This document shows, piece after piece, positions 76-25,494 of a stretch of DNA of 57,684 nucleotides. The notes under the pieces were generated by a model. It was not told where the DNA came from, ran no database searches, and saw only the letters and a program-made list of their open reading frames with translations. The stretch's first letter is position 1; each line of letters opens with the position of its first letter. The stretch spans positions 1 to 57,684 of the forward strand of contig JBEKXL010000015.1 of assembly GCA_049512075.1 (NCBI GenBank). Direction: 5' to 3'. This stretch comes from Candidatus Bathyarchaeia archaeon (GTDB lineage Archaea; Thermoproteota; Bathyarchaeia; Bathyarchaeales; Bathycorpusculaceae). Position numbers and translations under genes: made by a program.

Positions 76-426
76 TTACACCAATTTCGGGACAAGGCAG
101 CGCGCTTCTATCTGGCGGAATCCTTCGACGCCTACGCGCTTCTTCATCTGGCTGAAGTGCGCTTCAGTGGGGATTTTGTTGCCGTAGCCGCAGGCGTTTC
201 GCAGGAAGCGGCTTCGCCTGAGCCGTTTCACCAAGTCCTTGCCGTAGGGTATCTGCTCCAGCTGACGCAAAAGGAGCGCTCGGAGGTCGCACTCCGGGCT
301 GTACTCTGCGGGTCGCCCCGCGCCTTCCTGGTGTAGACCGTTCCAGAGGATGGAGTGAAGAGGAGTTAAATCCAAGTTCTTGAATAGAAGCATGGCAGAA
401 CCTGATCTCTTCATTTTCGTATCCAT
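76..426 (-). pseudogene. N-terminal fragment of a DDE transposase (DUF772-like, IS5/IS1182-like), truncated
   Basis: Translation 'GAGRPAEYSPECDLRALLLRQLEQIP...LVKRLRRSRFLRNACG...PTEAHFSQMKKRVG' parallels the N-terminus of the transposase at 7564-8558. No DDE domain follows; the reading frame degenerates at a GCGCGC site (100-105). Confidence 0.75.
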
Positions 427-481
427 CAATATGAGGAGGTCGGGCTCCCCCAATATAAACCATGAATTATTTAATCCGCCC
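100..481 (-). mobile_element. IS remnant bounded by GCGCGCGC (482-489) and GCGCGC (100-105)
   Basis: Transposase fragment plus ~55 bp upstream region that ends exactly at the octamer; the other end is lost. Confidence 0.6.
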
Positions 482-516
482 GCGCGCGCTTTTCCTTTTG
501 GCCATTGTCTCACCCC

Positions 517-660
517 TCACATATCGTTAAAATCGTACTTCACATTGTGAAGCAGGTTGAAGATTCTGTCAACATGCTCTTGTGTTAGCTCGTTGGAGTT
601 TTCAATAATCGTTAATGCTTCAGCGAGAGTATGCAGTTGTATGTCTGCTCGGTAGGGCAT
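517..660 (-). CDS. Small hypothetical protein (47 aa from ATG 660)
   Basis: Only ORF between octamers at 482 and 776; helical amphipathic-looking sequence, no recognised motif. Confidence 0.35.
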   Translation of the reverse strand: MPYRADIQLHTLAEALTIIENSNELTQEHVDRIFNLLHNVKYDFNDM

Positions 661-783
661 GGCACGTGTTTCTTTTCCCAGTGCTTCACCACAAATCGAA
701 AGCTGATGCAAAAGGACAGGAGAAGTCTTGATAGGTGAAGGATGCTTGTTCACTGACAAACGATGTAGGTGTGAGGCGCGCGC

Positions 784-3700
784 TTAGCGTGCGCTGTCTT
801 TTTGTTTATCGTGCGTTTCAAGGCTTTCTTTGTTCAAGGGCAATTCGCAATCTGAATATTTCTGGTTAGTCATCTTCTTGACCCTTACAAACTTCAGAGG
901 TCCAGTTCCAGTGTCTTTTTCAAAGATGGCGATTTGTCCTTCGAATAGATCCAGAATTGCTTGAACTTCTTCTTGGGGGTGCATCTGGAGGTTAATCACT
1001 GCAAGCGTCGTGAACCCCTTCGATCTGAATTCGGGAATGAGGCCCGTCAGCCATCTTCTGGTCTGCAGGGCATGATGCTGCAGTAAAACGTCGGAAATGA
1101 TTTCAACGCAAGCTCTTCTAGGGACGTTTTGCAGTGCGTCAGGTGCGCGAAAGGCTTTGGCCAATGCGATGCTTATCTCGGTGAGGTTTTCCACACCTTT
1201 CAATTTGAATACGTTAGGCAAGCTCTCTATCATCGTGTCCGCCTGAGGACTGCAGACGAAAAGGTAGAAGTTTGACTGGTATTCTCTTGCCAGCGATGCC
1301 AGTTCAGCTGGGTCAATTGTGACGTGAAACGTGGCATCGCCACTCTTTGCCCCTGCTTCTAGAAATCCTTTGATGAGTGAATCCCTTTCGTCGCATGAAG
1401 GTGCAGTCAAGGCGACCGAGTATCCTTTTGGTATTCCGCCGTAGAGTAGGTTGTCGAGGGCCTCACATCCAGTTGGGATTCGGTTCGCAAGAGCAACCTT
1501 TGGAATCGTGACTGGTGCGGGCTGCGGATACGTTTTCTTGATGCGGTTTCTACTCGTCCTAACCCACACGCCTCCAACTAGAGATCCGGCAAGCACTGCA
1601 AACAGTGCGAGGACGAATGGCATGTTCGCAGGAGCGAACAGGTTGTTCCACCACGCAGCGGCTGGTAGGTAGTGGGCAACGGCCGTGTGCGGTCCGTACA
1701 CCGTGATGTTTATGGAGTTGCGGCCGGGTTCGTAGCTTGAGTCATCGACTGTCCAGCGGTCAAACACTTTGCCGCTTACGTTCTGAGCCGTACACGTCAG
1801 CACAGTACCATCGTCGTACCATGGTCCAGGTGAAAAACTGGGCTGGGGAATCAGGCCAGCAGGATCAGTGTTCACATTGACTCGGTACTGGGTCTTCCAA
1901 TTCCACATTAGGCTAGAAGGTTGAGTTATCGATAAGTTTGCTGACGTTTCTGTTCCGGATGCAGGAACGCTTCCGGTCCCATTCCATCCCGTGCACACGT
2001 ACTGAGTATCCGTCGGTGCTGGGGGCGTGACAGACGCGAGAATCGATGTTCCTGCTTCCATCCAGCCGCTGGAAAGCGTGGGCAAACCGTAGATAGAATC
2101 TACCGTCAAGTAGTACTCGTGTCTCCAGTTGACTGTTTCGTTGATGGGAGCATTCATGGTTATGAAACTTGAATCGGCCATGCCGCTGTAGCTGCCGCTG
2201 CCTGTTCCATTCCAGCCGAGCAAGACGTATCGTTCTTGCGTGGGTGAAAAAGCTAACGGTGGGGCCGTTGTGTTAACAGAAAAGGCTGAGTCGGCATTAC
2301 ACCAGTATGCACCGACTGATGGAATAGTGGTTCCAAGGTTTGCATTGATGATTAGTTGGTACTGAGGCTGGTATTTGGCTGTTAGCGTTGTCGTCCCGTT
2401 CACGAGCAGCGTTCTTGAATTCGATGTTTCATTGCCCTCCCATTGAATGAAGGCTGAACGTGAACCGAGTCCTGTTGAGACGTAGGCTGTTACGTTTACG
2501 GTGTAGTCGGCAGGCGGAAGGAACACTTGGGCTTTTCCATAGTCATCTGTAACGTACGAATAGTTAAGCGCGCCTGCGCTAACGGCTGTTACCGGTATGT
2601 ACGACTCATTGGCAACTGTTACCGGGATGTTAGGGTAGGGAGGAATTGTCTGAATTGTCAAGAGGCATCCGGACAAATGGTATTGTAGAAATTCATTCCA
2701 AGCAGTATCTGCCGCAAAGGTTGTGTTTTCATATTCCTTTTCGAAACTGCTATACCTCGCTCCATCACTCGGGAAGAATATCGCCAAGCCATAGGAATTT
2801 GGGAGCAATATGTTTTCTGCAATTATCGTGCTCTCGTTTATCGCTGTCATCACTTGGCCAGCAGCGTTTCGAAGCTCCTCGTCGACAGGATTTTGATAGG
2901 TTGAAGCATTGATAAGCTGGGCAAAGTGGCAGAGATCAACGTAGCAGCCCGTGTCCCCTTCGTATGGGCCTGGATATTCCTCAGTCTTGTTTCTTGCCCA
3001 GCATATCTGTTGGTCGTACGGCGTTTCTTTATCCTTTAACTCCATAGCAAAATCGTCGATGGCGGCACTTAGACTTGTGATTCTTGTCAGGTCGATTGCC
3101 GACATAGTTGCATTCTGAATCACCTGAGGATGACCTTGTTGGCTGTAAATTTGACGTTCGTGATTGCACCAGGCTATGTAGTCGCTGACCACTTGCGTCG
3201 CTAACTCGCTTGGCATCATCGATGGGTTGCTGGTCAGGTGTGCCAGGTACCAGTTATAAGGGCCTGGTGAGTAGCCAAGCCCTTCATAGCCAACCATTAT
3301 ATCTGCATAATCCTTAACCTGATAGGCAACCTCTGTCATAGACATGCTGCAAGCGTCATTGAATACTACATCGATTATTACTGGAAGCCCGTCCAGAGCT
3401 TGGCTCAATTTGGACATTGACAAAAAATCGTTGTTTGTTGAGTCAATACAAAGGCCCACAAAACCTGCTCCATGGTCCCAAAGCACCAGACAGTAGTGGT
3501 TGGCAGGATAACTGTCTATTGTCCAATTGACAAAATCCCTTAGAGTTGCAGGATCTCCCATGTCCACCTCGCCCAAATCCGATATTGCATTCCCAGCCGT
3601 AGGCGTCATGTTTGTCGTGACGTAGAAGCGTTTACAATCAGTCCAATTGTCAAACCTGCCGTCGCTTGTCCAAACGCCATTATTCCACCAGCCTGCAATT

Positions 3701-4875
3701 CTGTCCATCTGTACGACCACGTTAACTTGGGATGAGGAACCGACCTCGGCGATATTCAGAAAAGTATCTATTCCTGCGGAACCATTTTGACCTTCTACGC
3801 TAAAATTGTAGTCTGCATCAAGGTACACCATGAATGTCCAGTCTGCGACGGGTTTGTTTGCAACGACGAAAGGCGTGGTCGCGACAGGCCCGTAAGGCAT
3901 CCATGTCCCGTTGAAATAGCTGTCAAGGTAGACTTCCACTTTCCAGTTTCCGACAGGGGTGCTTGAATTGATGGGCATATAATCGTCCGTGGCGTAGTCG
4001 TATTCCCCACAGTTCCAAGTCACGTTCACATCTTTGTAGTCAGTGAAGTTGCCCGAGTACGTTTCATATATGCTGCCGTCGGGCTGAATCCAAACGGTCG
4101 TGAAGTTGTGGCTGCATCCTAGCTCTTCGTTGAAGTAGGCGATTTTGTCAAACCTGAGATAATAGTATACGTTTGAGTCTGCTCCGATGGTGAACCGGGA
4201 TTTCATGTTGATTGGATTCCCGTTTGTGTCAACACCCTCGCAAGTGCGAGGGCTTTCCAGCCCGCCGTTGGTTATCTCGAAGAAATCTGAAAACGAAAAC
4301 TTCCCGTTTAGGTAAGCGTCAACCTTATAAGCCCTCGGGCAATACAGCTCGTGCCCTGCGATGAATAGGTGGCCTTCGCACCCCATATTTGTCACCGTTG
4401 TTGCGCAGGAGTAGCATAAAACCCAAGTTTTAGATGTGTCGCTCCTATAGTACCATCTGAACTCAACAGAACCATTGATTGGACTTGTTACCAGACACAC
4501 CGCTTTTTCGTCACCAGGACTGAAAATCGTCGTGAGATCAACGGGGGCGCCATCTGGTGTATAGTCCTTGCACATCGCATGGTTGATTAAAGGAGAACTT
4601 GAGGCAGAAGCGCTCACACGCAAGGTTTGAAGACCTCCTTGATATGTTTCTGTTGAATTCTCCTGAGCAAGCTCGACTACTGACGTATCAGATTCAGGTC
4701 TTTGGGAACCCATGGAGCCCCCAATCTTTTGCGCGGTTGGAGCGTTCTCTCTTGCATAGGCATCGTCCGAAAATGCCGTCCCTGCTGCATTGACCCCCAC
4801 GTGAATCACTGATGATAGAGTGAAAAAAAAGACTAGAAAAATGAGAAAAACTACTCCGCTAACCCTCAATTTCAC
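784..4875 (-). CDS. Secreted clostripain-family (peptidase C11) protein with beta-rich repeats, one TM helix and a C-terminal KaiC/RAD55-like ATPase domain
   Basis: N-terminal signal peptide; C11 motifs WTFMVYLDAD, LWDHGAG (His) and DACSM (Cys); repeated 'WNGTGSG/V' modules; TM 'FVLALFAVLAGSLVGGVWV'; 'RIPTGCEALDNLLYGGIP' RecA/KaiC start with a degenerate Walker A. Confidence 0.85.
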   Translation of the reverse strand: MKLRVSGVVFLIFLVFFFTLSSVIHVGVNAAGTAFSDDAYARENAPTAQKIGGSMGSQRPESDTSVVELAQENSTETYQGGLQTLRVSASASSSPLINHAMCKDYTPDGAPVDLTTIFSPGDEKAVCLVTSPINGSVEFRWYYRSDTSKTWVLCYSCATTVTNMGCEGHLFIAGHELYCPRAYKVDAYLNGKFSFSDFFEITNGGLESPRTCEGVDTNGNPINMKSRFTIGADSNVYYYLRFDKIAYFNEELGCSHNFTTVWIQPDGSIYETYSGNFTDYKDVNVTWNCGEYDYATDDYMPINSSTPVGNWKVEVYLDSYFNGTWMPYGPVATTPFVVANKPVADWTFMVYLDADYNFSVEGQNGSAGIDTFLNIAEVGSSSQVNVVVQMDRIAGWWNNGVWTSDGRFDNWTDCKRFYVTTNMTPTAGNAISDLGEVDMGDPATLRDFVNWTIDSYPANHYCLVLWDHGAGFVGLCIDSTNNDFLSMSKLSQALDGLPVIIDVVFNDACSMSMTEVAYQVKDYADIMVGYEGLGYSPGPYNWYLAHLTSNPSMMPSELATQVVSDYIAWCNHERQIYSQQGHPQVIQNATMSAIDLTRITSLSAAIDDFAMELKDKETPYDQQICWARNKTEEYPGPYEGDTGCYVDLCHFAQLINASTYQNPVDEELRNAAGQVMTAINESTIIAENILLPNSYGLAIFFPSDGARYSSFEKEYENTTFAADTAWNEFLQYHLSGCLLTIQTIPPYPNIPVTVANESYIPVTAVSAGALNYSYVTDDYGKAQVFLPPADYTVNVTAYVSTGLGSRSAFIQWEGNETSNSRTLLVNGTTTLTAKYQPQYQLIINANLGTTIPSVGAYWCNADSAFSVNTTAPPLAFSPTQERYVLLGWNGTGSGSYSGMADSSFITMNAPINETVNWRHEYYLTVDSIYGLPTLSSGWMEAGTSILASVTPPAPTDTQYVCTGWNGTGSVPASGTETSANLSITQPSSLMWNWKTQYRVNVNTDPAGLIPQPSFSPGPWYDDGTVLTCTAQNVSGKVFDRWTVDDSSYEPGRNSINITVYGPHTAVAHYLPAAAWWNNLFAPANMPFVLALFAVLAGSLVGGVWVRTSRNRIKKTYPQPAPVTIPKVALANRIPTGCEALDNLLYGGIPKGYSVALTAPSCDERDSLIKGFLEAGAKSGDATFHVTIDPAELASLAREYQSNFYLFVCSPQADTMIESLPNVFKLKGVENLTEISIALAKAFRAPDALQNVPRRACVEIISDVLLQHHALQTRRWLTGLIPEFRSKGFTTLAVINLQMHPQEEVQAILDLFEGQIAIFEKDTGTGPLKFVRVKKMTNQKYSDCELPLNKESLETHDKQKDSAR

Positions 4876-4999
4876 CCCTCATGCTCAATATGAATTAGCG
4901 CGCGTGCGCTCTATATAAGAGTTCGAAGACGCTGATTTGAGGGAATTGTTTTAAAGAAACTATGGAAGAACACTGAACGCGCGCGCTCTCTTAAGGGCA

Positions 5000-5212
5000 C
5001 TATATTGTCACTGTTATGCCTATTGCGAAGGCGAGGGCGGCGATGAATAAAAGCGAAAAAACCGTAACGTAGGCAGCTGTCCGCGTCATTGATCCTCCAC
5101 CGAAAAATCCCCAAGGAATCATCTTATTCTTAGGAGTCTGCCTAATAAGATACCAGTACCCAGCAGCGATGAGAACACAGAACGCACCCACCAAGAATGC
5201 GGGAAAATACAT
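5000..5212 (-). CDS. Small two-TM membrane protein
   Basis: Two hydrophobic segments; lies between octamers at 4979 and 5271. Confidence 0.55.
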   Translation of the reverse strand: MYFPAFLVGAFCVLIAAGYWYLIRQTPKNKMIPWGFFGGGSMTRTAAYVTVFSLLFIAALAFAIGITVTI

Positions 5213-5365
5213 CAACCCTACCCACAAATCTACACAACAATAAAACAGTTAAAACTTGCTATGCGCGAGTGCGCGCGCTGTGAGTAAGAGCGCGTGCGCT
5301 CTATCGAGTGATTCATGCGCTAGCCTAGAACCTTCAAGCCTGCCTTGTCAGATTCTTTGCGGGCG

Positions 5366-5497
5366 CTATTTTTCGCCTTTGGTGTATTCTGGAGGGAGTT
5401 GAGTGTTTCGTCTCTCTTTCCTTTTTAGTTCTTTTTCTCTCTGCAATTTCATGTGCTGTTTATGATCTGTAGCTTTCTGTTTCTTACCTTTTGACAC
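5366..5497 (-). CDS. Small basic hypothetical protein (43 aa, MSKGKKQKATDHKQHMKLQREKELKRKERR...)
   Basis: GTG start preceded by AGGAGG and an upstream TATA-like element (~5538-5545); below the ORF-track cutoff. Confidence 0.45.
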   Translation of the reverse strand: MSKGKKQKATDHKQHMKLQREKELKRKERRNTQLPPEYTKGEK

Positions 5498-5671
5498 ATT
5501 TCATCCTCCTCAACACGTTAGACTTTGTTCTTACGTCTATAAGAAATGCGCGTGTCTTATGCATTTAGCTTCCTTTAGTGCAATCCAAGGAGCAACGTAG
5601 AAATGATGACTTTTCCCCGATAACTTAGTTTCAGCGGTCAACTTTGTCTTGGCTATGAGATAGCAAGAAGC

Positions 5672-5941
5672 TCAGCGCAACCTTGTAAAAGCAGCCAGAT
5701 ATTCAACTTTGCGCTTGTGATATACCTTGCATTCTTTGACGACTTTTTTCCCGTATGGCGGCGGGTACATCATACCCATCCTTGCCAGCAACATGAGTTG
5801 CGTTGCCTGATCCTGCCTTGTTTCGCTGTATTCTGGGCATCCTATGCATTGATCGGGGAACTCATTGAAGCACACATGTTGTACTTCCAAAACTATTCCC
5901 CCAGCGCGAGCGCTCGGGATATCTTCTTCCTTAGATGACAA
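5672..5941 (-). CDS. Hypothetical Cys-rich protein
   Basis: 89-aa ORF with C-x7-CIGC and a distal Cys; possible metal binding. Confidence 0.5.
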   Translation of the reverse strand: MSSKEEDIPSARAGGIVLEVQHVCFNEFPDQCIGCPEYSETRQDQATQLMLLARMGMMYPPPYGKKVVKECKVYHKRKVEYLAAFTRLR

Positions 5942-6238
5942 AGGGGCCGAACGGAGATATTAAGATGTATGGAGCTATCTTCTATCCTCGTCTGATCTGA
6001 AAACTCGCGCGCGCGAAGCATGGGTTAAGAGCGAGATTGAGAAAGGCACGTTCCGAAAGAGATCAGACGCTCTTAAGGAGGGTCTTCTGCGTATGCGCGA
6101 AGCCATGAAAGAAAAGAAAGAATAGCGAACCGTTTCTTATTCATAAAGCTGGTTCAGCACTCAAGCGCGCGCTAACTTTTAATAATAGTTTCAACACAAG
6201 TAACATTTGCGAGAACAAGAGTTAAGGAGAATGGAAAA

Positions 6239-7390
6239 TTGAAACAAGCATCGTTAATAATGATTGGTCTAAGTCTCTTGATGTTTTCGGTCCTTGCACC
6301 TCAGGTGAAAGCATTTGGCATCACGGCATATCCTTGGTCAATGTTTCACCACGATTCAATGCACACAGGATTTTCCCTGTCACCAGCGCCGAACGTGAAT
6401 AGCATCCTTTGGACATTTCAAACCGCCGGCGGAATCGTAGGATCCCCAGCCGTTGTTGATGGTAAAGTCTTCGTAGGAACAGAAAACTCGCTTTACGCTG
6501 TAGATCAGATCAATGGCAAATTGTTGTGGAGCAGACAAGATATTGGCTCCTGGTGGAGTTCACCAGCTGTTGACGACGGTAAAGTCTTCATCTGCGACTT
6601 CAGCAATATATACGCTCTCAAAGAGAGTGATGGCAGCACAGTATGGAGTTACCCGTTAGACTTCTTCGCTTATTATTCATCACCCACTGTCGTTGGTAAC
6701 CTCGTGTTTGTAGGGGATATCGATGGCATCTATGCTCTTAATGAAAAAACCGGAGCCAAAGTATGGAACTACGCGTTACCAGATGTATTTTGTAGTGTAG
6801 CAGCAGCCAACGGTATGATCTTTGCTGCCAACCTTGGGCCCCCTTGCTCGTTGGTCGCTCTGAACATGTATACTGGTCATGTTGTTTGGAGCCTCAGTTT
6901 AGATTATGGTGGCTCATTCGTCGCTTCTCCCGCCGTTGCTGACGGCAGGGTCTTTGTGTCAGTCCTCACGGGCGACTTGGCAAACGGATGTGTTCTTGCT
7001 CTTAACCAGTTCAACGGTCACATTATATGGCGAAGTATGGAAACTGGCCCTATTTACTCTTCTCCAGCTGTGGCCTACGACAAAGTCTTCGTTGGCAGTG
7101 ATGATAACAACACCTACGCTTTTCATGAGAAGGATGGCAGCTTAATTTGGAGTTACGCAACTGGTAATATCATCGAAGCATCTTCTCCTGCTGTAGCCGA
7201 CAACAAAGTTTTCATAGGCTCATGGGACAACTACGTGTATGCTCTGGACCAACATACTGGAACCCTCTTATGGAGACTCAAAACAGGAGGCGCGACAGGT
7301 TCACCAGCTATTGCCGATGGCGTTTTATATGCGGGTTCATTAGATGGAAGACTATACGCTGTTGGGACGCACGCGCACAAACGGTTCTAA
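6239..7390 (+). CDS. Secreted PQQ-binding-like (BamB-type) beta-propeller repeat protein
   Basis: Signal peptide, WSMFHHD...TG start, about eight repeats of 'SSPAV.DGKVFVGS.D..YAL....G..W'; GGAG RBS, upstream TATA, downstream T-tract. Confidence 0.9.
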   Translation: MKQASLIMIGLSLLMFSVLAPQVKAFGITAYPWSMFHHDSMHTGFSLSPAPNVNSILWTFQTAGGIVGSPAVVDGKVFVGTENSLYAVDQINGKLLWSRQDIGSWWSSPAVDDGKVFICDFSNIYALKESDGSTVWSYPLDFFAYYSSPTVVGNLVFVGDIDGIYALNEKTGAKVWNYALPDVFCSVAAANGMIFAANLGPPCSLVALNMYTGHVVWSLSLDYGGSFVASPAVADGRVFVSVLTGDLANGCVLALNQFNGHIIWRSMETGPIYSSPAVAYDKVFVGSDDNNTYAFHEKDGSLIWSYATGNIIEASSPAVADNKVFIGSWDNYVYALDQHTGTLLWRLKTGGATGSPAIADGVLYAGSLDGRLYAVGTHAHKRF

Positions 7391-7523
7391 ATCTAAGCAC
7401 AAAAATCAGGCAAACTCCCACATTTTTTCTATTTTCGCAAAACCGAAAAGGGACGCGCAGCATGCCTCTGTTGGAACTAGTTCGTGAGAGACTGTGTTTC
7501 ATTGCCTAAACAATGGCGCGCGC

Positions 7524-8633
7524 CAGCTCGTTGCTAAATCGATTTCTTTGTGTTAATTTCTCTTTATCTTGCGAGTATAGTGATGGATCTGGCTTTTTCC
7601 GGCCTGTTCAGCCTCAACGCTGTTAATGCATTCAGAAGCATGGCGATTATACAGAGCAGAGCATGTATGGTCATACGTTCGAGGCCTCTGGCCTGTGCCT
7701 TTCAAGACAGAGCTGTCCCTTCAGCCTTGAATTCACCCGCTCAATGGCTCCCCTCTGAGCGTAAATCTGGCGTTCGCCTGCAGGACCATGAGTCCTGAAG
7801 TACTTGTCCACACGCAGTAGTGTCTTCTTTTCTTTGCTCTGGTTCGCCGGGTAAGGAATGACGACCTTTACGCCGTGAGTTGAAAGCTGTTCTCTCAGTT
7901 TTCTGCTGGAGAATTGCGAATCCGCAACGAGTGTTTTTGTGCGCTGCTCTGTGGTTTTCAACGCCTTGCGAAAGAGCGCTGATGCGTGTTTCTTCTCGTT
8001 CTCGTTGGCCGACGCAGCGATAACTGCCAGAGGCAGCTCCGACTTCGCGTCTGCTGCAACGTGCAGTTTGTAGCCGAGCTCGTAGGTTTTGCCGTTCCTC
8101 CCCACCCTGGCTTCAGGGTCTGACTTTCCACGACTGGTCTCATGCGGATCTCTTCTGCTGTAAGCCTTGACGAAGGTGGCGTCCAGCACCACGGTTTCAC
8201 CGCTAATAACGCCTCTCTTCAAAAGTTCCTTGAGCAGCCTGTTCATGATTCTTTGAAGCCTTCGTGTTCCGACGCGTTTCTTGAACCGCGACAGCTGCGA
8301 TGGATGATAAGGATTCTGTTCCGTTTCGATGTCGCAGATCTCCCTCAAGTTATCGTCTTTCCATAACCGTCTACAAAGTTCTCTCTCGCTGGGAATCTGC
8401 TGAAGCCGCTTCACGATCAACGCTTTGAAGATGCCAATCGGTTTCCTGGGCGGCCTACCCGGCCCATCTTCTTTATGGTAAGCTTTCTTGACAACCTTCG
8501 CTATATCATCTAAGCCTAGTTTAGATAGGATGGCGCATGAGAATTCGGGTTTCTCCATCCTTCACCCTGAGTATTCAAGTCGAAACAAGCTTAAACAGCA
8601 ACATGTCAACTCTCATAATTTTGCAACAAGCTG
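7524..8633 (-). mobile_element. Complete 1110-bp insertion sequence (IS5/IS1182-like DDE) flanked by GCGCGCGC on both sides
   Basis: 16-bp terminal inverted repeats CAGCTCGTTGCTAAAT (7524-7539) and ATTTTGCAACAAGCTG (8618-8633), 14/16 match; GCGCGCGC at 7516-7523 and 8634-8641. Confidence 0.9.
7564..8558 (-). pseudogene. DDE transposase with a 1-nt frameshift near the C-terminus
   Basis: Motifs VVLDATFVKA (D), LVADSQF (D), RGAIERVNSRLK (E). The frame stops at 7671, but the expected tail 'RGLERMTIHALLCIIAMLLNALTALRLNRPEKARSIT' continues in another frame from ~7691 to TAA at 7564. Confidence 0.85.
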
Positions 8634-8684
8634 GCGCGCGCTTTATGGAGAAAAAATAGGGATATGAAACTCAGAATACGTTGA

Positions 8685-8999
8685 TTATTTTTTTGGTTTC
8701 AGGGGTTCGGGGGCCACAGGTGACTTGTCCCAGAGATTCCAACATAGGTCATGGGCGTGCATCATTGTTTTGGTCATCATGTCTTTGATTTTTGGGTCGT
8801 CTAGAGCCTTTCCCCACGACATGTATGAGTCGAACTCCATCTCGACAAGTACGTTGAGCGTTCCGGTCTCTCGGTATCCCCTGAACTCCTTGAGGCCGGG
8901 GGTCGAGAGCCAGGCGGGAACGGCGACCTCCTTTGCGAATTTCGTGTAAGCATCTATCTTATCCTTATCGATTGTGTACTTTACATAGTAGAGAACCAT
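8685..8999 (-). CDS. Dimeric alpha/beta barrel (NIPSNAP/ABM-like) protein
   Basis: 104 aa; pattern 'PGLKEFRGYR...VLVEMEFDSYMSW.KAL'; GGAGG RBS. Confidence 0.65.
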   Translation of the reverse strand: MVLYYVKYTIDKDKIDAYTKFAKEVAVPAWLSTPGLKEFRGYRETGTLNVLVEMEFDSYMSWGKALDDPKIKDMMTKTMMHAHDLCWNLWDKSPVAPEPLKPKK

Positions 9000-9260
9000 G
9001 CTTCATCCCTCCGTAGCTGGATAGAGAAGTTGAATTTAAAAATGTTTCGCACGACCCCTAAACGTTAACATCTTGTTGTTTCTTTGCATGTTCGGGCTTC
9101 GGATAAAACTCTACCCCCACACACGCAATAATCCCTTTTCGGTTCAGCATAACTTTTCCGCAAAACCAAAAACTGGCTTTCTTCATGATGAAAAACCTTT
9201 ATGGACTCCCTGAAATCTTGCATAAGAGTTAACATAAGGGTTGTTAGAGTTCTTGTTGAA

Positions 9261-9681
9261 ATGACCAATATGCTTCAGATGAAGCTGGATTCTATTCAGC
9301 CGTCTCAGTTATACATTAATTCTGAGAAATTACGTTATGTTATGAGACAACTTGTCTAAACCATGTTTTGCTGAGCCTGTTCCAGTGAAGAAACTGGGAG
9401 ACCAAGTTGTTCTTGTTGACGGGCACACAAGAGCCTTTGCAGCATTCTTGCTTGGTTTTTCTGAAATTCCAGTCGAATGGGAAGATGAAGAGCTCGATTG
9501 GGAAGAATACGAAGTCTGTGTTAGATGGTGCAAGGAAGAAGGAATTCACACCATATCAGATTTGAAAAACAGGGTCATATCACCCAAGGATTACCAAGTC
9601 CTATGGCTTGACAGATGTGCAAGAATGCAAAGAGACTTGGAAGAAAAGAGAAAAGCTCAGAAGAACAGAGCAAAGACATAA
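9261..9681 (+). pseudogene. ParB/sulfiredoxin-like domain protein, frameshifted
   Basis: 'IQPSQLYINSEKL' (frame from ATG 9261, stop at ~9357) continues in another frame as 'EPVPVKKLGDQVVLVDGHTRAFAA' (9352-9681). Confidence 0.7.
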
Positions 9682-9699
9682 TAGCACGGTGCAATCTTT

Positions 9700-9948
9700 C
9701 TACTTCTTCTTCTTCGGTTTCTTGTAAGTTACGTATGCCTCTGTAACCTTTGAATCCAATGGTTTTAGTTCTGTTATTACCCATTCCCTAATCTCTATAG
9801 TTGCTGTTCCTTCTTTTACCTTGCCTGCCACCTTATCCGCTACTTTTGTTGCGTGTTCTTCTTTGGCTCCAGCCTTCTTCACAGAAGTTTTACACTTTGC
9901 TTTGTCAAACTCTTGCATAACCCCCGAACGCTTCTTCACTTTAGCCAA
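9700..9948 (-). CDS. Stand-alone ATP-cone domain protein
   Basis: 'VKKRSG..QEFDKAK...SVKKAG...TIEIREWVITEL' ATP-cone signature; GAGGTG RBS. Confidence 0.8.
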   Translation of the reverse strand: MAKVKKRSGVMQEFDKAKCKTSVKKAGAKEEHATKVADKVAGKVKEGTATIEIREWVITELKPLDSKVTEAYVTYKKPKKKK

Positions 9949-10069
9949 CCAAAATCACCTCCTCATTCGTCAATTTCCCCTATAAATCATATACTTTTAA
10001 GTTTTACGCTAAGTAGACGCCCGCGCTACCAGCAGTGCTTCCCATTTTGCGGGAGTGAGATTTTAACTC

Positions 10070-10852: not shown

Positions 10853-10935
10853 AACTAGGTCTTCAGATGGACGATATCTCCAATAGGTAATTACGGTTTT
10901 GATGGTTTACGAAGGCATATGGAGGAATCGTCTGG

Positions 10936-11313: not shown

Positions 11314-11409
11314 TCCAGATATCAGCGCGCGCTATCTTCAAGCGGTTTTTGTCAAGCGCGTGCGCGCTTAAATCCGCACAGCAACAGAAGACAAACTAGG
11401 TGTTCCAAC

Positions 11410-11658
11410 ATGAGTGAAGTCAAGAAGTGTCCCGAATGTGGTGGAGAAATGGAAAAAGGATAAGTGAATACAGCTCGCGGACTATTCTGGGATACGAAAG
11501 CACATAAGGGGATTTTTGGAACCGCTGGTGGGGCTGTGATTATTCCACTTAACTGGACGGTTCAGAATCTTCAAGCTTACCGCTGCGTGAAATGCTGGCT
11601 GATATTGTTCAAATATGGCAAAAAAACCGAGCTACCCCAAACGATGCCTTATGAATAA
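11410..11658 (+). pseudogene. Small zinc-ribbon protein with an in-frame TAA
   Basis: MSEVKKCPECGGEMEKG*VNTARGLFW...AYRCVKC: the two CxxC halves are in the same frame, separated by TAA at 11461-11463. Confidence 0.75.
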
Positions 11659-11725
11659 TTGACCATCCTTGGAAACACAGAAATCTTTAATCTGCACAGC
11701 AACAGAACATAAACTAGGGATTACA

Positions 11726-14339: not shown

Positions 14340-15737
14340 ATGAAGATAAAGTTCTTGGGTGCAGCGCGTCAAGTGACTGGATCAAGCTATTTCCTGGATG
14401 CCGGTGGAGTGAAGATTCTTGTCGATTGTGGGCTGTTTCAGGAAAGGGACTATTCCTACAGAAACTGGGAGGCCTTCCCCATTCCTCCAGGCCAGATTAA
14501 TCATGTCCTCCTCACACACGTTCACCTGGACCACTGTGGGCTCATTCCCAAACTTGTCAAAGAGGGATTCACCGGAGACATCCTGCTCACGCCTGCATCC
14601 AAAGCACTTTTTCCAATAATCATCTTGGATTCTGCTCGAATGCAGGAAGAAGATGCCGCCTTCAAGAAAAAGCGCCATGATACCGAAGGCCGAAAGGGAC
14701 CCTACCAGGAAATCCCCCTTTACACAGTCCAGGATGCTGAAAAGTGTTTTCCACTCCTGAAGGAGATTCCCTACGAAGAATATCTGCCGCTTAATGATCA
14801 AGTTAAGGTGTGTTTCCACGATGCCGGCCACATCCTGGGCTCAGCCATGGTTGAGTTAATCGTACAAGATGACAACGGCTCGCGGAACATCGTCTTCTCA
14901 GGCGACATCGGCCAATGGGACAAGCCCCTTCTCGCCAATCCCGCCACTTTTGACCGAGCGGATTACGTGGTCATGGAATCCACGTACGGAGATCGCAACC
15001 ACGACAGCCCTCAAGATATCGATGACAAACTCTCCAAGGTCGTAAATGACACGGTGAACGCGGGCGGGAACGTCCTCATCCCCACCTTTGTAATTGAGCG
15101 CGCGCAAGACCTGCTGTATCACCTCGGTCGCTTGGCCAATGCGAAAAGGATCCCCTATGTTGTGACCTTTCTCGACAGCCCTATGGCCGTCGAAATCACG
15201 AAGGTCTTTGAACAATTCAAAGAGTATCTTGAAAAACAGACACCGGAACTCTTCAAGAATGGTCAATCACCTTTTGACTTTCCAGGGTTGAAGCTCACCG
15301 AATCCATTGAAGCGTCCAAGGCAATCAACCTCATCAGAGGGTCAACCATCATCATGGCCGGCTCGGGGATGATTACAGGAGGAAGAATCAAGCATCACCT
15401 AGCCCGAGAGATAACTCGTCCAGAATCCACTCTTCTTTTTGTGGGGTACCAAGCAGCTGGTACGTTGGGAAGGCAAATCTTGGACGGCGTTTCCCCCGTT
15501 AGAATCCTGGGACAGTCCTATCCTGTGCGGATGAATATCGAGAAACTCGATGGCTTCTCCGCACACGCCGGCATGAACGACCTGCAACGCTGGCTCAACA
15601 ACTTCAAATCTCCACCGAAGCATGTTTTCCTGACCCACGGCGAAGAAGAAGCGATATCGAGCCTAGAGAACTATCTCCATTCCAAGGGCGGATGGCAAGT
15701 AAGTGCACCAACATACATGGAAGAATACACCCTCTGA
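14340..15737 (+). CDS. MBL-fold beta-CASP ribonuclease
   Basis: GAARQVTGS, THVHLDHCG, AGHILGS, MESTYG, GYQAAGTLGR and FSAHA motifs. Confidence 0.92.
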   Translation: MKIKFLGAARQVTGSSYFLDAGGVKILVDCGLFQERDYSYRNWEAFPIPPGQINHVLLTHVHLDHCGLIPKLVKEGFTGDILLTPASKALFPIIILDSARMQEEDAAFKKKRHDTEGRKGPYQEIPLYTVQDAEKCFPLLKEIPYEEYLPLNDQVKVCFHDAGHILGSAMVELIVQDDNGSRNIVFSGDIGQWDKPLLANPATFDRADYVVMESTYGDRNHDSPQDIDDKLSKVVNDTVNAGGNVLIPTFVIERAQDLLYHLGRLANAKRIPYVVTFLDSPMAVEITKVFEQFKEYLEKQTPELFKNGQSPFDFPGLKLTESIEASKAINLIRGSTIIMAGSGMITGGRIKHHLAREITRPESTLLFVGYQAAGTLGRQILDGVSPVRILGQSYPVRMNIEKLDGFSAHAGMNDLQRWLNNFKSPPKHVFLTHGEEEAISSLENYLHSKGGWQVSAPTYMEEYTL

Positions 15738-20313: not shown

Positions 20314-20355
20314 ACCTGTGAAAGCTCTTAAGATAGCGCGCGCTTGCGTGGTTTT

Positions 20356-23315: not shown

Positions 23316-23347
23316 AAACACTCTTATGCATGCTGAGAGGCGTTCAG

Positions 23348-23899
23348 ATGAGCAGGAGTGAAGAAAAAGCGCCGTCGGAGCTCAGGGCCAAGGGCTTGCT
23401 CGTGAAAGACGGCGTGAAGGTTCCTGAAAAACGGTTTGTAGACGAGCTTTCCCAGAGAGGCTACGGCGTGCCAGGAAAGAAGAGTTTTCTGCTTACATTC
23501 TACGAGGCGCTCTACCTCGTAGACAAGTCGATGCTGGAGGTTGAGGATGAAAACGGTGAAAAAGCGGGTTTTCAGAGGCTGCTCCAGCGTTACGAAAGCG
23601 TTAACGAGAACGCGTGGGCGTGCTACCTGGTCTTCCGTGATTTGAGAAGCAGGGGATACGTTGTGCGCGAGGGCTTCGGCCAGGGCGTGGATTTCCGAGT
23701 TTACGAGCGCGGCGACTACAGCAAGGACACGGCAAAGTACCTGATAGTGAGCGTTCAAGAGGGAAAGCCTATTGCAGTTGAAAGCCTGAGCCGCGCGTTG
23801 ACACAGAGCCTTAGCCTCAAGAAAGAACTCGTCCTGGCCGTCATGAACCGCAGAGGAGAAATAGTTTACTACTCCGTCTCAGAATTAAGCTTGAAATAA
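23348..23899 (+). CDS. endA: tRNA splicing endonuclease subunit, probably the structural (non-catalytic) one
   Basis: 'LTFYEALYL', 'YLVFRDLRSRGYVVREG', 'DFRVYERG'; the catalytic His region appears absent. Confidence 0.8.
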   Translation: MSRSEEKAPSELRAKGLLVKDGVKVPEKRFVDELSQRGYGVPGKKSFLLTFYEALYLVDKSMLEVEDENGEKAGFQRLLQRYESVNENAWACYLVFRDLRSRGYVVREGFGQGVDFRVYERGDYSKDTAKYLIVSVQEGKPIAVESLSRALTQSLSLKKELVLAVMNRRGEIVYYSVSELSLK

Positions 23900-23916
23900 G
23901 AGGGGGAAGGCTGAGC

Positions 23917-25218
23917 ATGGCCGAGTTCAAGACCGTCCGAGGCATGAGAGACTTTCTCCCAGAAGAAGCCAGGCTGCTACGACACGTTGAAGGCAGGGCT
24001 AGGGAAGTGGCGAGGCTCTACCGTTACAGGGAGATTGTGACGCCCGTCGTTGAGTCATACGAGCTCCTGTCAGCCAAAGCCGGTGAAGAAGTCAAGTCGC
24101 GCATGTTCCTCTTCAAGGACCTGGGCGGAAGAGACGTCGCGTTGCGACCGGAGTTCACCGCCTCCGTGGCTAGGCTTGTGGCCACGACCTTGCGGAACGA
24201 GCCCAGGCCGTTCAGGCTCTTCTCTGTTGGAAGCATATACAGGTACGATGAGCCACAACGGGGCCGTTACCGAGAGTTCTGGCAGACGAACTACGAGCTG
24301 ATGGGTTCAAGCAGACCAGAGGCAGATGCTGAAATCCTGCTACTGACGAACAGCCTCATGCAGACCGCAGGGTTGAAGAAGTTCGCGTTCAAAGTCGGCC
24401 ACATCGGCGTCCTGAGAGGCATACTTACCCAAGAGAAACTCGTGGACAAGGTGCAGAGCGCCGTCATGCAGCTCATGGACAAGAAACAGTACGAAGATGC
24501 GTTCAGACTCGTGGAAAGCGCAGGCGTGTCAGAAACGTGCATTCTGACCCTTCAAAAACTGGTCGAACTCAAGGGCAACAACGTTCTCGACGTGGTCGAC
24601 AGAGTAGCCGAACTCGTGGGAGATTATGAAAAGTCTGTTGAGGCTTCGAGGAACCTGGGCGAGATTCTGGATCTTGTTTTGAAGAGCAGATGCGATGTTG
24701 ACATGACGGTTGACGCGGGGTTCGCCAGGGGGCTAGAGTATTACACGGGAATGATTCTTGAAGTTTACGTGCCCGACCTGGACATAGCATTGGGCGGAGG
24801 CGGAAGATACGACAGGCTGATTGAGCTGTTCGGGGGCGACCCGACCCCTGCTGTGGGCGTTGCCCATGGAGTGGACAGGCTGATGCTGGCGTTGCAGGAG
24901 CAGAAGGCTGCCCAGAGAACCTTGCGAGAGACTGAGGAGGAAAGGGCGGTACTGGTTGTTCCCATCAAGGAGGAGCTGAGGGGTGAGGCCTTGAGGGTTT
25001 CGCAGATGCTTAGGAACGCGGGAGTGTCGGTTGAGCTTGAGGTCATGGGGCGAAAGATGGCCAAGGCGTTGGAAGATGCAGATAGGAGAAAGATGAGTTA
25101 CGCTGTGATAATCGGGGAAAGAGAGCTCAAAGAAGGAGCAGTCGTCGTTCGAAACTTGGCCAAAAGAGTGCAGAGCACGGTCAAGATTGAAGATGTTTTG
25201 GAAGCAGTGAAAAGCTAG
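23917..25218 (+). CDS. hisS: Histidine-tRNA ligase
   Basis: VRGMRDFLP, LRPEFT, YRYDEPQRGRYREF.Q, RGLEYYTG, GGGRYD, anticodon-binding domain. Confidence 0.96.
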   Translation: MAEFKTVRGMRDFLPEEARLLRHVEGRAREVARLYRYREIVTPVVESYELLSAKAGEEVKSRMFLFKDLGGRDVALRPEFTASVARLVATTLRNEPRPFRLFSVGSIYRYDEPQRGRYREFWQTNYELMGSSRPEADAEILLLTNSLMQTAGLKKFAFKVGHIGVLRGILTQEKLVDKVQSAVMQLMDKKQYEDAFRLVESAGVSETCILTLQKLVELKGNNVLDVVDRVAELVGDYEKSVEASRNLGEILDLVLKSRCDVDMTVDAGFARGLEYYTGMILEVYVPDLDIALGGGGRYDRLIELFGGDPTPAVGVAHGVDRLMLALQEQKAAQRTLRETEEERAVLVVPIKEELRGEALRVSQMLRNAGVSVELEVMGRKMAKALEDADRRKMSYAVIIGERELKEGAVVVRNLAKRVQSTVKIEDVLEAVKS

Positions 25219-25494
25219 AGTCCAAATCGTGCAGCGACCAAAGCATCTGATGCTGGATTTTGAGCCCTTGCTTCTAGGTGCCTGATTCGCGATTTCTCTG
25301 AGGCACAAACCGTTGATGACGTCACACGTTGTGTGATTCTTCCGCACTGCTTGAGATTATCTCTTTTGGTTTGAGGCAATTCCTGGAGTTCCTCGCACCA
25401 TGGGTTTCATTTCCGACGCTTGTCATGGCGCGCGCTCCGCGTTCTTACGTTGTTTTGGCAGTCTCTGAGTTGTTGCGTGTATTCTGAAGGGCGG

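Follow-up and report, generated by a model that had tools for sequence, protein, structure and literature searches.

Short alternating-GC palindromes at the borders of lineage-specific DNA in Bathyarchaeia look like scars of DNA joining rather than cassette docking sites

In the first 25 kb of a contig from an uncultured soil archaeon of the Bathyarchaeia, accessory genes are parted again and again by the same eight letters, GCGCGCGC. What places so short a palindrome between unrelated genes? The initial annotation proposed an insertion site used over and over, from which integron-like cassette arrays are built. The comparisons described here suggest a different answer, in that the octamer looks less like a place where cassettes dock than like a GC palindrome of fixed sequence, left as a scar at joints by a DNA-repair route not yet described. 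The matter bears on how double-strand break repair without Ku and the uptake of foreign DNA proceed in most archaea.

Abundance and form of the octamer

The octamer is a self-complementary palindrome of eight letters, and the window, that is, the whole stretch of 57,684 nucleotides analyzed, holds 15 copies, starting at 482, 776, 4979, 5271, 6007, 6165, 7516, 8634, 11325, 13420, 13624, 15098, 20336, 25428, and 56940, exactly the set that had been counted by eye. This is far above chance; 100 dinucleotide-preserving shuffles gave a mean of 0.73 copies and a maximum of 4, and none of the 100 reached 15. Across the source genome (G000), GCGCGCGC occurs 646 times and ranks first among the 65,536 8-mers. 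On an ORF map that is crude, 528 of the 646 copies lie outside ORFs and 111 inside, though ORFs make up 79% of the genome, so that the density outside is 18 times that inside, and the 528 copies in non-coding DNA compare with 5.7 to 97.8 expected under Markov models of orders 1 to 3. The initial annotation had confined the octamer system to 100-25435, which does not hold, since the feature is genome-wide and its density in the window (15 in 57.7 kb, or 0.26 per kb) is that of the genome on average (646 in 2,725 kb, or 0.24 per kb). The contrast within the window is real, with 14 copies in the first 25.4 kb and 1 in the last 32 kb, and variable and shared DNA differ in the same way across the genome. 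The absence of GCGCGCGC from 29-56 kb was likewise borne out; the other phase, CGCGCGCG, lies there at 54509, inside the XPB gene, and also at 28313.

The octamer is one form of an alternating-GC run. Among intergenic runs that begin with G there are 244 of 6 bp, 201 of 8 bp, and 76 of 10 bp; for those that begin with C the counts at these lengths are 86, 26, and 12, and only 4 runs are longer than 10 bp. The preference for one phase is clear among isolated intergenic 8-mers, with 201 copies of GCGCGCGC versus 26 of CGCGCGCG. Because length and phase are so sharply limited, microsatellite slippage was rejected as the source of the runs. The run is usually GCGCGCGC, weakly TA-GCGCGCGC-TA; an alignment of 546 runs with their flanks showed A at position -1 in 59% and T at position +1 in 59%, and no consensus beyond these two positions. 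Intergenic variants of the run that arise by a transition had 91 to 100 copies, about twice the 33 to 49 copies of those that arise by a transversion. Richness in the octamer is restricted to certain lineages, and the runs are purged from genes. Their spacing is clustered, with 23 gaps of more than 20 kb observed versus 5.6 expected. A promoter or terminator element was also rejected, since the runs are similarly dense in divergent (0.72 per kb), tandem (0.78 per kb), and convergent (1.07 per kb) spacers, and their distance to gene starts and stops shows no peak and no fixed position.

Runs at the borders of lineage-specific DNA

The source genome was compared with a sister genome that is about 95% identical (G002), the compared part being 867 kb of the sister's 2,327 kb. 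In G002 the runs occur at 0.24 per kb where intergenic DNA is shared, at 1.17 per kb where it is unshared (5-fold higher), and at 6.49 per kb within 10 bp of the ends of homology blocks (27 times the shared intergenic value), so that core intergenic DNA is comparatively poor in the octamer. Of 265 ends of homology blocks between the two genomes, 59 had a run no more than 2 bp away in one genome or both. With expectation calculated by placement within the same intergenic interval, 34 of 206 ends were this close versus 3.0 expected, and the maximum over 2000 simulations was 10. Twenty-three of 25 control 8-mers gave 0 or 1 in this test, and the other two, which overlap the flank of the motif, gave 3 and 6. 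Synteny breakpoints thus coincide with the octamer, and they do so at the strain level as well, where contigs of the near-identical strain X7 break exactly at octamers 482, 6007, and 8634. Runs stand at the exact borders of lineage-specific DNA and accumulate in variable DNA.

At 48 of the 62 borders that bear a run, only the genome with the novel DNA has it, as the first sequence outside the shared block. The run is common to both genomes at 4 of the 62, and the exact X7 borders include the octamer in 2 of 3 cases; these shared border runs represent re-use of a run, not its creation. Where a third genome gave the polarity, the ancestral sequence lacked the run in 5 of 6 cases, indicating that the run arose with the event. 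In these cases, A-GCGCGCGC stands in place of 131 bp common to G000 and G001, acCGCGCGCGt in place of 776 bp common to G002 and G004, a run-X-run arrangement (event 20) in place of about 340 bp of coding-like DNA common to G000 and G004, and 6.9 kb bracketed by octamers in place of 64 bp common to G002 and G003. The fifth case (event 33) lies in the window, where an ancestral spacer of 405 bp (53084..53490), common to G004, has a run-bordered substitute in G002; this is 719 bp of different DNA, bordered on one side by a 7-mer run and on the other by the variant gcgcgtgc. In the contrary case, the run is intact in G003 and decayed in G000, and G002 has 992 bp with the same borders.

We read the (GC)3-5 runs as made at illegitimate DNA joints and open to later re-use, a by-product and not a signal or docking site, and we would put the chance that this is correct at about one half. 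Most rearrangements do not use such a joining-scar route, as neither border has a run in 44 of 81 colinear indel events. Among 20 segments with a run of at least 8 bp at a border, 16 have it at one end only, and for these the scar model would have to assume something more, for instance that homology anchors the opposite end. Clean insertions have no run of at least 6 bp at their borders in 21 of 23 cases, and the remaining two, events 28 and 31, have runs on both sides of the segment and a single run in the other genome. As a separate observation, nearly all clean mobile-element insertions ignore the runs.

Within blocks, 3 of 32 runs sit in small pure insertions of 12 to 14 bp that carry the run, and 11 of 32 differ from G002 by substitutions only. 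The latter would be expected if the runs came from mutation bias or selection and merely attracted breaks, slippage, and microhomology-mediated deletion, acting as fragile sites or microhomology hotspots because all are the same GC-rich palindrome. The few shared border runs (4 of 62), the collapse of two runs to one in events 28 and 31, and a difference of (GC)4 versus (GC)5 at octamer 11325 also agree with a fragile site. Such a site leaves unexplained the origin of the 500-odd runs, the runs that replace ancestral DNA with no run at either border, and the 5-fold density in unshared DNA. Moreover, a search of run-rich genomes for a C5 methyltransferase, which could drive a repair bias like that proposed for the cyanobacterial word HIP1, found no PF00145 in G000, G001, G003, G004, G018, or G021 and only a sub-threshold match in G002. 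We therefore hold the fragile-site account to be very doubtful.

HIP1 (GCGATCGC) deserves comparison in its own right, because the octamer might be a selected functional word of that kind, serving as a site for binding, methylation, or chromosome structure. Both are GC-rich octameric palindromes, by far the commonest 8-mer of the genome, in one lineage and of patchy intensity; the hyper-abundance typical of HIP1 is seen with GCGCGCGC (rank 1, 528 versus 5.7 to 97.8 expected), whose phase specificity (201 versus 26) also suits a functional word. HIP1 was reportedly first noticed at deletion borders. HIP1 is described as enriched and conserved in ORFs as well as in the spacers between them, a pattern that speaks for selection (PMC5861425), and as tied to GATC/CGATCG methyltransferases (PMC4390886). 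The octamer does not share this enrichment and conservation within and between ORFs. It is 18 times denser outside ORFs, concentrated in unshared DNA, and less conserved than background, with 6 of 22 runs kept, whereas random intergenic 8-mers from the same blocks were kept in 796 of 1497 cases. The runs are without purifying selection; they are clustered, depleted in shared core spacers, and at no fixed position near gene starts or stops. We give hardly any credence to a selected word.

The octamer array in the window

The left part of the window (1..13438) is a mosaic specific to the source genome, with scattered fragments only and no colinear counterpart in G002. Ten of the 15 octamers fall within it (0.75 per kb). 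Twelve of the 15 lie outside any ORF of at least 80 aa, the exceptions being 482, 13420, and 15098. The first octamer (482..489, maximal run 481-489) is inside a doubtful ORF, and the homology of an X7 contig (record 25) stops at 490, exactly at the edge of the run. The second (776..783) directly adjoins the stop codon of a minus-strand gene of 1363 aa (784-4875), clostripain-like/KaiC-like by Pfam, in agreement with what had been said of this protease gene. Near the start of the same gene lies a 7-mer run (4898-4904), with an octamer (4979..4986) about 100 bp upstream of that start. The octamer at 5271..5278 has decayed variants (gcgcgtgcgc) 20 bp beyond it. That at 6007..6014 (maximal run 6006-6015) is the left border of a segment absent from strain X7, whose record 28 ends at 6014 and whose depth was 0.84, 0, 12.2, and 4.92 in four bins over 6004-8671 versus 34.8 to 80.4 from 8672 on. 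A PQQ beta-propeller gene (6239-7390, Pfam) does lie between octamers 6165 and 7516, as claimed, 66 bp downstream of the former (6165..6172). It is followed by an IS5-family insertion sequence (7516..8641) with inverted ends CAGCTCGTTGCTAAATCG, bracketed by octamers at 7516-7523 and 8634-8641 and encoding a transposase on the minus strand (7671-8558; Pfam DDE_Tnp_1, 4e-24, and DUF772, 9e-14); X7 homology (record 29) begins at 8642, just past the right octamer. Further along, a stretch of 2162 bp (9171-11332) splits a multi-copy short repeat and has an octamer (11325..11332) at its right end. The joint of 9170 to 11333, with TAT between, is present in contigs of runs X2, X5, and X6, and X7 has (GC)5 at the 11325 site, a run-length polymorphism. 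The octamer at 13420..13427 occupies the last codons of a CBM96 ORF (12922-13440), and synteny with G002 (C2) starts at 13439, 12 bp after it.

The octamer at 13624..13631, together with a 4-bp duplication (cgcc), is a clean 12-bp insertion relative to G002. The octamer at 15098..15105, inside a beta-CASP gene, is conserved in G002 and reads gcgtgccc in G004; it is probably a chance coding occurrence. At 20336..20343, G002 has gcggtcgt, with 3 of 8 positions different in DNA that is otherwise 95% identical, and G004 homology begins 12 bp past the octamer. The octamer at 25428..25435, for which G002 has gcgagcgc, is flanked by the HisRS gene on one side and, on the other, by an ORF of 440 aa that matched nothing in Pfam. 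The last (56940..56947, maximal run 56940-56948) comes 18 bp after 56922, where homology with both G002 and G004 ends.

Such an array invites a reading in which the octamer is a reusable landing pad for a dedicated site-specific recombinase, with cassettes inserted, excised, and exchanged there. Single genes are bracketed by octamers in 1-13.4 kb of the window, and breakpoints coincide with octamers, at 4 of 62 borders with a run common to both genomes. Events 28 and 31, with two runs around a segment and a single run in the other genome, are of the expected form, as is the 992-bp segment, which stands exactly in place of a run common to two other genomes. The source genome also has 22 tyrosine-recombinase matches, all on contigs other than that of the window. 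The initial proposal is borne out in part. Both of the checks it named came out in its favor, as breakpoints fall on the octamer and core intergenic DNA is poorer in it, and a minority of runs are re-used; a pre-existing site from which cassettes are built agrees poorly with the data, the run being confined to the genome with novel DNA at 48 of 62 borders and derived in 5 of 6 polarised cases. The co-occurring recombinase fared no better, as counts of tyrosine recombinases do not track octamer richness (3 each in G003 and G018 versus 11 in octamer-poor G006 and 10 each in G014, G020, and G040), and a Pfam search of 29 window ORFs gave no integrase. Against a landing pad there are also the lack of conserved arms around the 8-bp core in the alignment of 546 runs, cassettes in both orientations in the ORF list with no attC-like hairpins, the 21 of 23 clean insertions without a border run, and the decay of runs at a rate faster than background. 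Altogether, we consider a landing pad quite improbable.

Integrons resemble the array in being variable sets of single genes parted by a recurring short element, with presence/absence borders at that element. An integron attC site is an imperfect inverted repeat of about 57 to 141 bp with conserved core sites, IntI, attI, and a promoter stand at the end of the array, and the cassettes lie mostly in one orientation. The window array differs in having no attC-like hairpin or extended flank, ORFs on both strands, and no adjacent integrase. Furthermore, an integron attC pre-exists, whereas the runs mostly appear to be created with the event.

Proposed joining of DNA ends and the transposon alternative

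In this lineage of Bathyarchaeia, a joining scar would form when two non-homologous ends are joined with a short self-complementary alternating-GC stretch at the joint, whether in a deletion, a segment replacement, or the capture of foreign or relocated DNA. The ends would be given, or would find, GC-alternating 3' tails, which could anneal, (GC)n being its own complement, after which gaps would be filled in and the strands ligated. An existing run may serve as ready-made microhomology and be used again as a joint, which would explain the minority of shared border runs. In a fuller and more tentative form, to which we give somewhat less than an even chance, this would be an undescribed Bathyarchaeia end-joining route, patchy in at least six families, in which alternating-GC tails stamp every illegitimate joint with an 8- to 10-bp palindrome, the stamps become preferred joints later on and yield cassette-like mosaics without an integrase, and an IS/MITE family has adopted the GCGCGC end.

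To our knowledge, no prokaryotic activity adds a defined alternating sequence to DNA ends, and we identified no enzyme for the joining. Ku, searched for in 41 genomes, does not track octamer richness. It was found in six, of which G000, G002, and G004 are run-rich and G010, G020, and G040 run-poor, and it was not found in octamer-rich G001, G003, G018, and G021. Ku/LigD non-homologous end joining was rejected as the source of the scar, since Ku was not found in four run-rich genomes and is present in three run-poor ones.

Filler DNA occurs at end-joining junctions, and telomeric repeats have been inserted at internal breaks in primate chromosomes. Like the runs, these are short extra sequences located exactly at repaired breaks and visible only when orthologous loci are compared, and in the primate case a defined repeat is added by an end-extending enzyme. 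They differ in being eukaryotic, and ordinary filler has no fixed sequence; for the Bathyarchaeia runs, we know of no telomerase-like enzyme and found none. The nearest precedent for the proposed joining is pp-MMEJ, attributed to the Saccharolobus primase PriSL, an archaeal, Ku-independent end joining that leaves small insertions and deletions (PMC12019639). In that work, archaeal PriSL performs terminal transfer and anneals strands, for which two shared GC pairs can suffice (PMC12019639). The study does not report a filler of defined alternating-GC sequence and concerns another phylum, and a link to the runs would be by analogy.

If the run is a scar of fixed sequence, it would imply that the joining has a new chemistry or that a known enzyme, for example the primase, has a new role. 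It would also be a built-in marker for counting and dating illegitimate recombination in uncultured archaea, would let past deletions, replacements, and gene captures be read straight from the genome, and would explain the assembly of cassette-like accessory regions in organisms abundant in soil and sediment. There is a practical rule for annotating these genomes as well, namely that a GCGCGCGC run marks a seam where stretches of DNA with different histories meet.

Transposition is another conceivable source of the runs, which would then be left-overs or pseudo-ends of a cut-and-paste IS5-like/MITE superfamily with inverted ends starting GCGCGC and a TA duplication. They could be excision footprints, collapsed elements, or products of aberrant transposition, in which the transposase takes any GCGCGC(GC) as an end and moves or deletes the adjacent DNA. 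The IS5-family element of the window (7516-8641), with its octamers on either side, is consistent with this, as are 47 complete elements in the source genome with ends GCGCGC-NN-GCYTGTYCCTAAAT, mostly with TA outside. This end pattern was counted 62 times in G000, 28 in G004, 23 each in G002 and G021, and 22 in G001, and it was absent from 31 of 41 genomes searched and present 1 or 2 times in octamer-poor G007, G020, and G032. In addition, TA stands on at least one side of 106 of 246 solo (GC)4 runs versus a 4.3% TA background, a multi-copy repeat in G001 ends exactly at a border run, and end-like sequence lies next to the border in 9 of the 37 events bordered by runs. However, searches of six octamer-rich genomes of other genera (G018, G089, G098, G114, G250, and G225) did not find the end pattern of this IS/MITE family. 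The flanks of the runs are mostly unique, 42 of 580 adjoining DNA with at least three other copies versus 23 of 600 random intergenic positions, with octamers 7516 and 8634 of the window among this minority. A TA-run-TA footprint is rare (15 of 246 solo 8-mers, 10 of 98 solo 10-mers, and 4 of 507 solo 6-mers), junction runs replace 131 bp to 10.9 kb of ancestral DNA without TA or inner end sequence, and element ends measure 6 bp in almost every case, in contrast to the peak of 8 to 10 bp among solo runs. We thus regard transposition as unlikely; were it correct, a transposase would be remodeling the genome through minimal palindromic ends, of which there are few examples in prokaryotes.

REP/BIME sequences and IS/MITE ends are like the runs in being short intergenic palindromes in hundreds of copies. 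REPs are 20 to 40 bp long with conserved stems, whereas the runs are 8 to 10 bp with no flank consensus, and more than 90% of them adjoin unique DNA. The abundant IS/MITE superfamily of this genus ends in GCGCGC with TA immediately outside, which is hardly a coincidence and which the joining-scar model does not explain. This end family is present in G000 to G004, G021, G024, and G203.

Abundance, form and distribution of the runs

The 15 copies of the alternating-GC palindrome GCGCGCGC, here called the octamer, that were listed in the initial annotation were all recovered exactly by a pattern search of the window, where dinucleotide-preserving shuffles gave a mean of 0.73 and a maximum of 4. 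Twelve of the 15 lie outside any ORF of at least 80 amino acids. The copy at 776 abuts a stop codon, that at 13420 falls within the last codons of a CBM96 ORF, that at 482 within a doubtful ORF, and that at 15098 inside a beta-CASP gene. The octamer density of the window equals the genome mean, and there is therefore no local system at 100-25435 of the kind that had been proposed. The host genome (G000; 2.73 Mb in 86 contigs, 47.5% G+C, estimated contamination of 4.19%, with the window as contig C15) contains 646 copies, which ranks the octamer first among the 65,536 8-mers; CGCGCGCG, in the other phase, is found 353 times, and nine other GC-only palindromic 8-mers were counted 4 to 44 times. 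By a crude greedy ORF map (2,405 ORFs of at least 100 amino acids, covering 79% of the genome), 528 of the 646 copies were wholly outside ORFs, against Markov expectations for non-coding copies of 5.7, 21.3, and 97.8 at orders 1, 2, and 3, respectively. A ranking at order 6 did not flag the octamer because its sub-words are enriched too, and the lower orders were used instead.

The octamers reside in 547 separate runs, that is, maximal alternating-GC stretches, of which 250 are 8 bp, 186 are 9 bp, 105 are 10 bp, and 6 are longer. Intergenic runs beginning with G outnumbered those beginning with C by 244 to 86 among 6-mers, 201 to 26 among isolated 8-mers, and 76 to 12 among 10-mers. Microsatellite slippage was rejected, since the runs are phase specific and hardly ever exceed 10 bp. 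The flanks showed A at -1 and T at +1 (59% each), a weaker T/A preference at -2/+2, and otherwise no signal. Run density was about equal across divergent, tandem, and convergent spacers, and no preferred distance to gene starts or stops was seen in the host genome, so a promoter or terminator signal was likewise rejected. The runs are clustered, showing an excess of 25- to 300-bp spacings and 23 gaps above 20 kb (5.6 expected); contig C35 has 23 runs within 17.8 kb of low coding density. Among intergenic variants of the octamer, those differing by a single transition are roughly twice as frequent as those differing by a transversion, as expected if point mutation decays the runs.

The four other genomes of the genus hold 168 to 460 octamers each. 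The trait is patchy within the family (439 copies in G021, 227 in G018, 0 to 7 in most members), and the 301 genomes of the class that were surveyed include run-rich members from six or more families. Examples are G089 (601 copies), G203 (512), G250 (346), and G114 (325), the close relatives of which have next to no octamers. An assembly artefact is unlikely because runs recur in separate genome assemblies and in contigs from other sequencing runs, and because 8 to 10 bp is less than the assembly word length.

Runs at breakpoints between related genomes

The sister genome, G002, is approximately 94 to 96% identical to the host genome in shared DNA, and the comparison of 867 kb of its 2,327 kb yielded 137 non-redundant blocks totalling 563 kb; comparison with another congener, G004, covered 420 kb of one contig, and these related genomes are not independent. 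Leaving aside those at contig ends, there were 265 block ends, and 59 of them were at most 2 bp from a run in one or both genomes. The figure for the host genome alone was 35 of 265, compared with 1.0% of 5,000 random intergenic positions. When block ends were redrawn within their own intergenic interval, 3.0 matches were expected (maximum of 10 in 2,000 simulations) and 34 of 206 were observed. Twenty-three of 25 abundant control 8-mers gave 0 or 1 match at block ends, and the remaining two, which overlap the motif's own flank, gave 3 and 6. In the sister genome, shared coding DNA had 0.02 runs per kb. Intergenic DNA had 0.24 per kb where it is shared and 1.17 where it is not, and the density within 10 bp of block ends was 6.49 per kb. 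Two outcomes that the initial annotation had named as refuting it, an octamer equally common in core intergenic DNA and breakpoints that do not coincide with it, thus did not occur.

Runs turn over faster than the DNA around them: in shared intergenic DNA, only 6 of 22 runs were perfectly conserved, compared with 796 of 1,497 8-mers drawn at random from the intergenic DNA of those blocks. Of 32 host runs at least 60 bp inside shared blocks, 13 were kept in the sister genome, 11 differed by substitutions only, 5 showed small gaps, and 3 were clean insertions of 12 to 14 bp, one of which, at window position 13624, consists of GCGCGCGC plus a 4-bp duplication. The octamer at 20336-20343 differs from the sister genome at three of its eight positions in a 209-bp stretch that is 95.2% identical, and on this comparison runs may be hypermutable. 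In descriptive terms the octamer is a highly iterated palindrome, as is HIP1 of cyanobacteria, which is conserved within and between ORFs (PMC5861425). The runs here are the opposite in being less conserved than their surroundings, and of the properties tested for HIP1, the octamer lacks conservation and presence in genes. For the third, a C5 methylase, a search of the C5 class found no C5 methyltransferase in run-rich genomes, and on this ground a Dcm/Vsr-like repair bias was rejected. The abundance of the octamer would suit a selected functional word and its poor conservation would not; we give that explanation an extremely small probability.

Within the window, positions 1-13438 have no colinear counterpart in the sister genome and carry 10 of the 15 octamers. 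Positions 13439-56922, with four octamers, are common to both genomes as rearranged blocks, and the outer limits of this shared part are 12 and 18 bp from runs. Positions 1-20000 were also compared with contigs of a near-identical strain (sequencing run X7; identity of roughly 98 to 99%, judged by the listed differences), counting uncovered parts only where contig homology ends and unlike sequence continues. Homology ended at 490, ended at 6014, and started at 8642, the contigs continuing with unlike sequence, and all three limits coincide with octamer edges (482-489, 6007-6014, and 8634-8641). Mean X7 word depth in the four bins of 6004-8671 was 0.84, 0, 12.2, and 4.92, versus 34.8 to 80.4 from 8672 on. 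Octamer 11325 is (GC)5 in this strain versus (GC)4 in the window. Contigs of three sequencing runs join 9170 to 11333, which shows that in the window 2,162 bp, with octamer 11325-11332 at their end, interrupt a multi-copy repeat. Short interspersed repeats lie at 1-106, 9137-9187, 11367-11418, 11673-11722, and 12460-12584, with numerous matches in each of the four congeners and a summed contig depth of hundreds to more than 1,500 in other sequencing runs; 9137-9178 and 11333-11418 lie side by side in other copies.

Borders and polarity of individual events

A run touches the border at 62 block ends. In 48 of these (24 per genome) it is the first thing outside the block and is found in one genome only, and in 4 of the 62 it is common to both. 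Among 81 colinear indel or replacement events between the two genomes, 26 had a run of at least 8 bp at a border, 11 had 6- to 7-mers only, and 44 had no run. Six of the 26 set a solo run in one genome against a 110- to 835-bp segment in the other; the other 20 comprised 2 with runs of at least 8 bp at both ends, 2 with an 8-mer and a 6-mer, and 16 with a run at one end only. One event scored as having none sets a 25-bp stretch with GCGCGCGC against 10.9 kb in the sister genome. Clean insertions, in which the other genome is uninterrupted, lacked runs at their borders in 21 of 23 cases, several of them showing ordinary target duplications and inverted ends. The idea that the replaced segments are mobile elements was rejected, all seven tested (Y1 to Y7, opposite a run, a decayed run, or the 25-bp stretch) being single-copy; the 10.9-kb segment has partial matches of 65 to 74% in the host genome and short matches of 67 to 73% elsewhere in the sister genome.

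A third genome decided polarity in six cases, the outgroup being uninformative for events 28, 31, 37, 41, 44, and 75 (event 31 lies where a multi-copy repeat ends). The sister genome has A-GCGCGCGC in place of 131 bp common to the host and the congener G001, and the host has acCGCGCGCGt in place of 776 bp common to G002 and G004. At event 20, the sister genome has a run-X-run arrangement of about 960 bp, against about 340 bp of coding-like sequence common to the host and G004. An octamer-bracketed 6.9 kb in the host stands against 64 bp common to G002 and the congener G003. At event 33 (window 53084-53490), 405 bp are common to the host and G004, and the sister genome carries 719 bp of different DNA, with a 7-mer run at one border and a one-transition variant at the other. 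The sixth case is contrary, with a 9-mer intact in G003 and decayed in the host at exactly the place where the sister genome has 992 bp with the same borders. The run is therefore new in five polarised cases and older in one. That the runs are simply hotspots would not suit the five cases in which they are new, and we consider it very improbable. The site of the host's 6.9-kb segment (G002:C6:133936-134001 and counterparts) is a rearrangement hot spot; in G004 the sequences on either side of it are on separate contigs, each broken no more than about 40 bp from this point.

The initial annotation read the octamer as a reusable landing pad that builds integron-like cassette arrays. Breakpoints at octamers agree with this, and octamers bracket single genes in the first 13.4 kb of the window. 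An integron has attC cassette sites and an integrase, whereas the octamer array has no attC, no adjacent integrase, genes in both orientations, and no pre-existing site, and the integron-like reading did not hold. The co-occurring recombinase that it called for was sought. Tyrosine recombinases exist in the host genome but do not track octamer richness, with 22 matches there and 28 in G021, 3 each in run-rich G003 and G018, and 10 to 11 in four run-poor genomes, and a dedicated tyrosine recombinase was rejected. We regard a landing pad as decidedly improbable. The 22 matches (17 over the Pfam cut-off; for example, C1:322164-322628 and C4:116595-117023) are unusually many for a 2.7-Mb archaeon. 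Ku-dependent NHEJ was rejected in turn, Ku being uncorrelated with run richness: it is present in G000, G002, and G004 and also in run-poor G010, G020, and G040, and was not found in four run-rich genomes. Ku is rare in archaea; the host homologue is at C16:6054-6590 (PF02735, 7.6e-41). No candidate among C5 methyltransferases, Ku, and tyrosine recombinases tracks run richness.

Mobile elements with GCGCGC ends and the origin of the runs

An IS5-family transposase is encoded at window 7671-8558, within a 1,126-bp element (7516-8641) bracketed by octamers. The host genome has 47 complete elements with ends of the form GCGCGC-NN-GCYTGTYCCTAAAT, mostly with TA outside (for example, C1:117494-117677, C3:7469-7681, and C32:7469-8577). 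They form an IS5-like/MITE superfamily of 131- to 304-bp MITEs and approximately 1.1-kb ISs. The end pattern was counted 62 times in the host, 22 to 28 times in G001, G002, G004, and G021, 3 times in G003, and 4 times in G024, and was absent from 31 of the 41 genomes searched; members of the family occur in the genus as well as in G021, G024, and G203. The pattern was not found in run-rich G018, nor in G089, G098, G114, G250, and G225, which are run-rich too and belong to other genera. Runs abutting DNA with at least three other copies numbered 42 of 580, against 23 of 600 random intergenic positions, and a TA-run-TA footprint surrounded only 15 of 246 solo 8-mers. The family is thus connected with the motif. 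Since it was not found in several run-rich genomes, the footprint is rare, and few flanks are multi-copy, it cannot be where the motif generally comes from, and a transposon origin of the runs is unlikely. MITE collapse between two GCGCGC ends was rejected, TA-GCGCGC-TA being found in only 4 of 507 solo 6-mers. More than 90% of GCGCGCGC copies failed the tests for REP sequences and IS ends. A search for empty sites placed both flanks in another genome for 1 of 58 elements, and gave no target site because that element is conserved there.

The evidence is best fitted by runs that are scars made at illegitimate DNA joints, an explanation to which we give an even chance. It is favored because a run arrives with the event, on the derived side only, context-free and unconserved, and because runs are purged from genes and pile up where DNA turns over. 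Two ends with (GC)n tails could anneal to each other, since (GC)n is its own complement. An existing run might also serve again as a joint, and such re-use would account for the shared minority of border runs. Archaeal PriSL has terminal transfer activity and can anneal strands with no more than two GC pairs in common (PMC12019639). It is the nearest known mechanism, and by analogy it may be involved here. Counting against scars are the 44 run-less events among 81, the 16 of 20 run-bordered segments with a run at one end, the one contrary polarity case, and the lack of an enzyme among the candidates searched, and the GCGCGC ends of the IS family are not accounted for. Titles and abstracts of the literature on GCGCGCGC in genomes or intergenic DNA and on bathyarchaeal palindromes contained no description of the motif in archaea.

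Several other window genes merit description. The minus-strand gene at 784-4875 encodes a 1363-amino-acid protein with a clostripain-family peptidase C11 domain and an InlB-type repeat, and with a weak KaiC-like ATPase match at its C terminus, below the Pfam cut-off. The P-type ATPase shares up to 90% identity with proteins from genomes labelled Bathyarchaeia. At 53633-56539, an XPB-type helicase is directly followed by a DUF790 protein of 517 amino acids, which we take to be the archaeal XPB-Bax1 pair.
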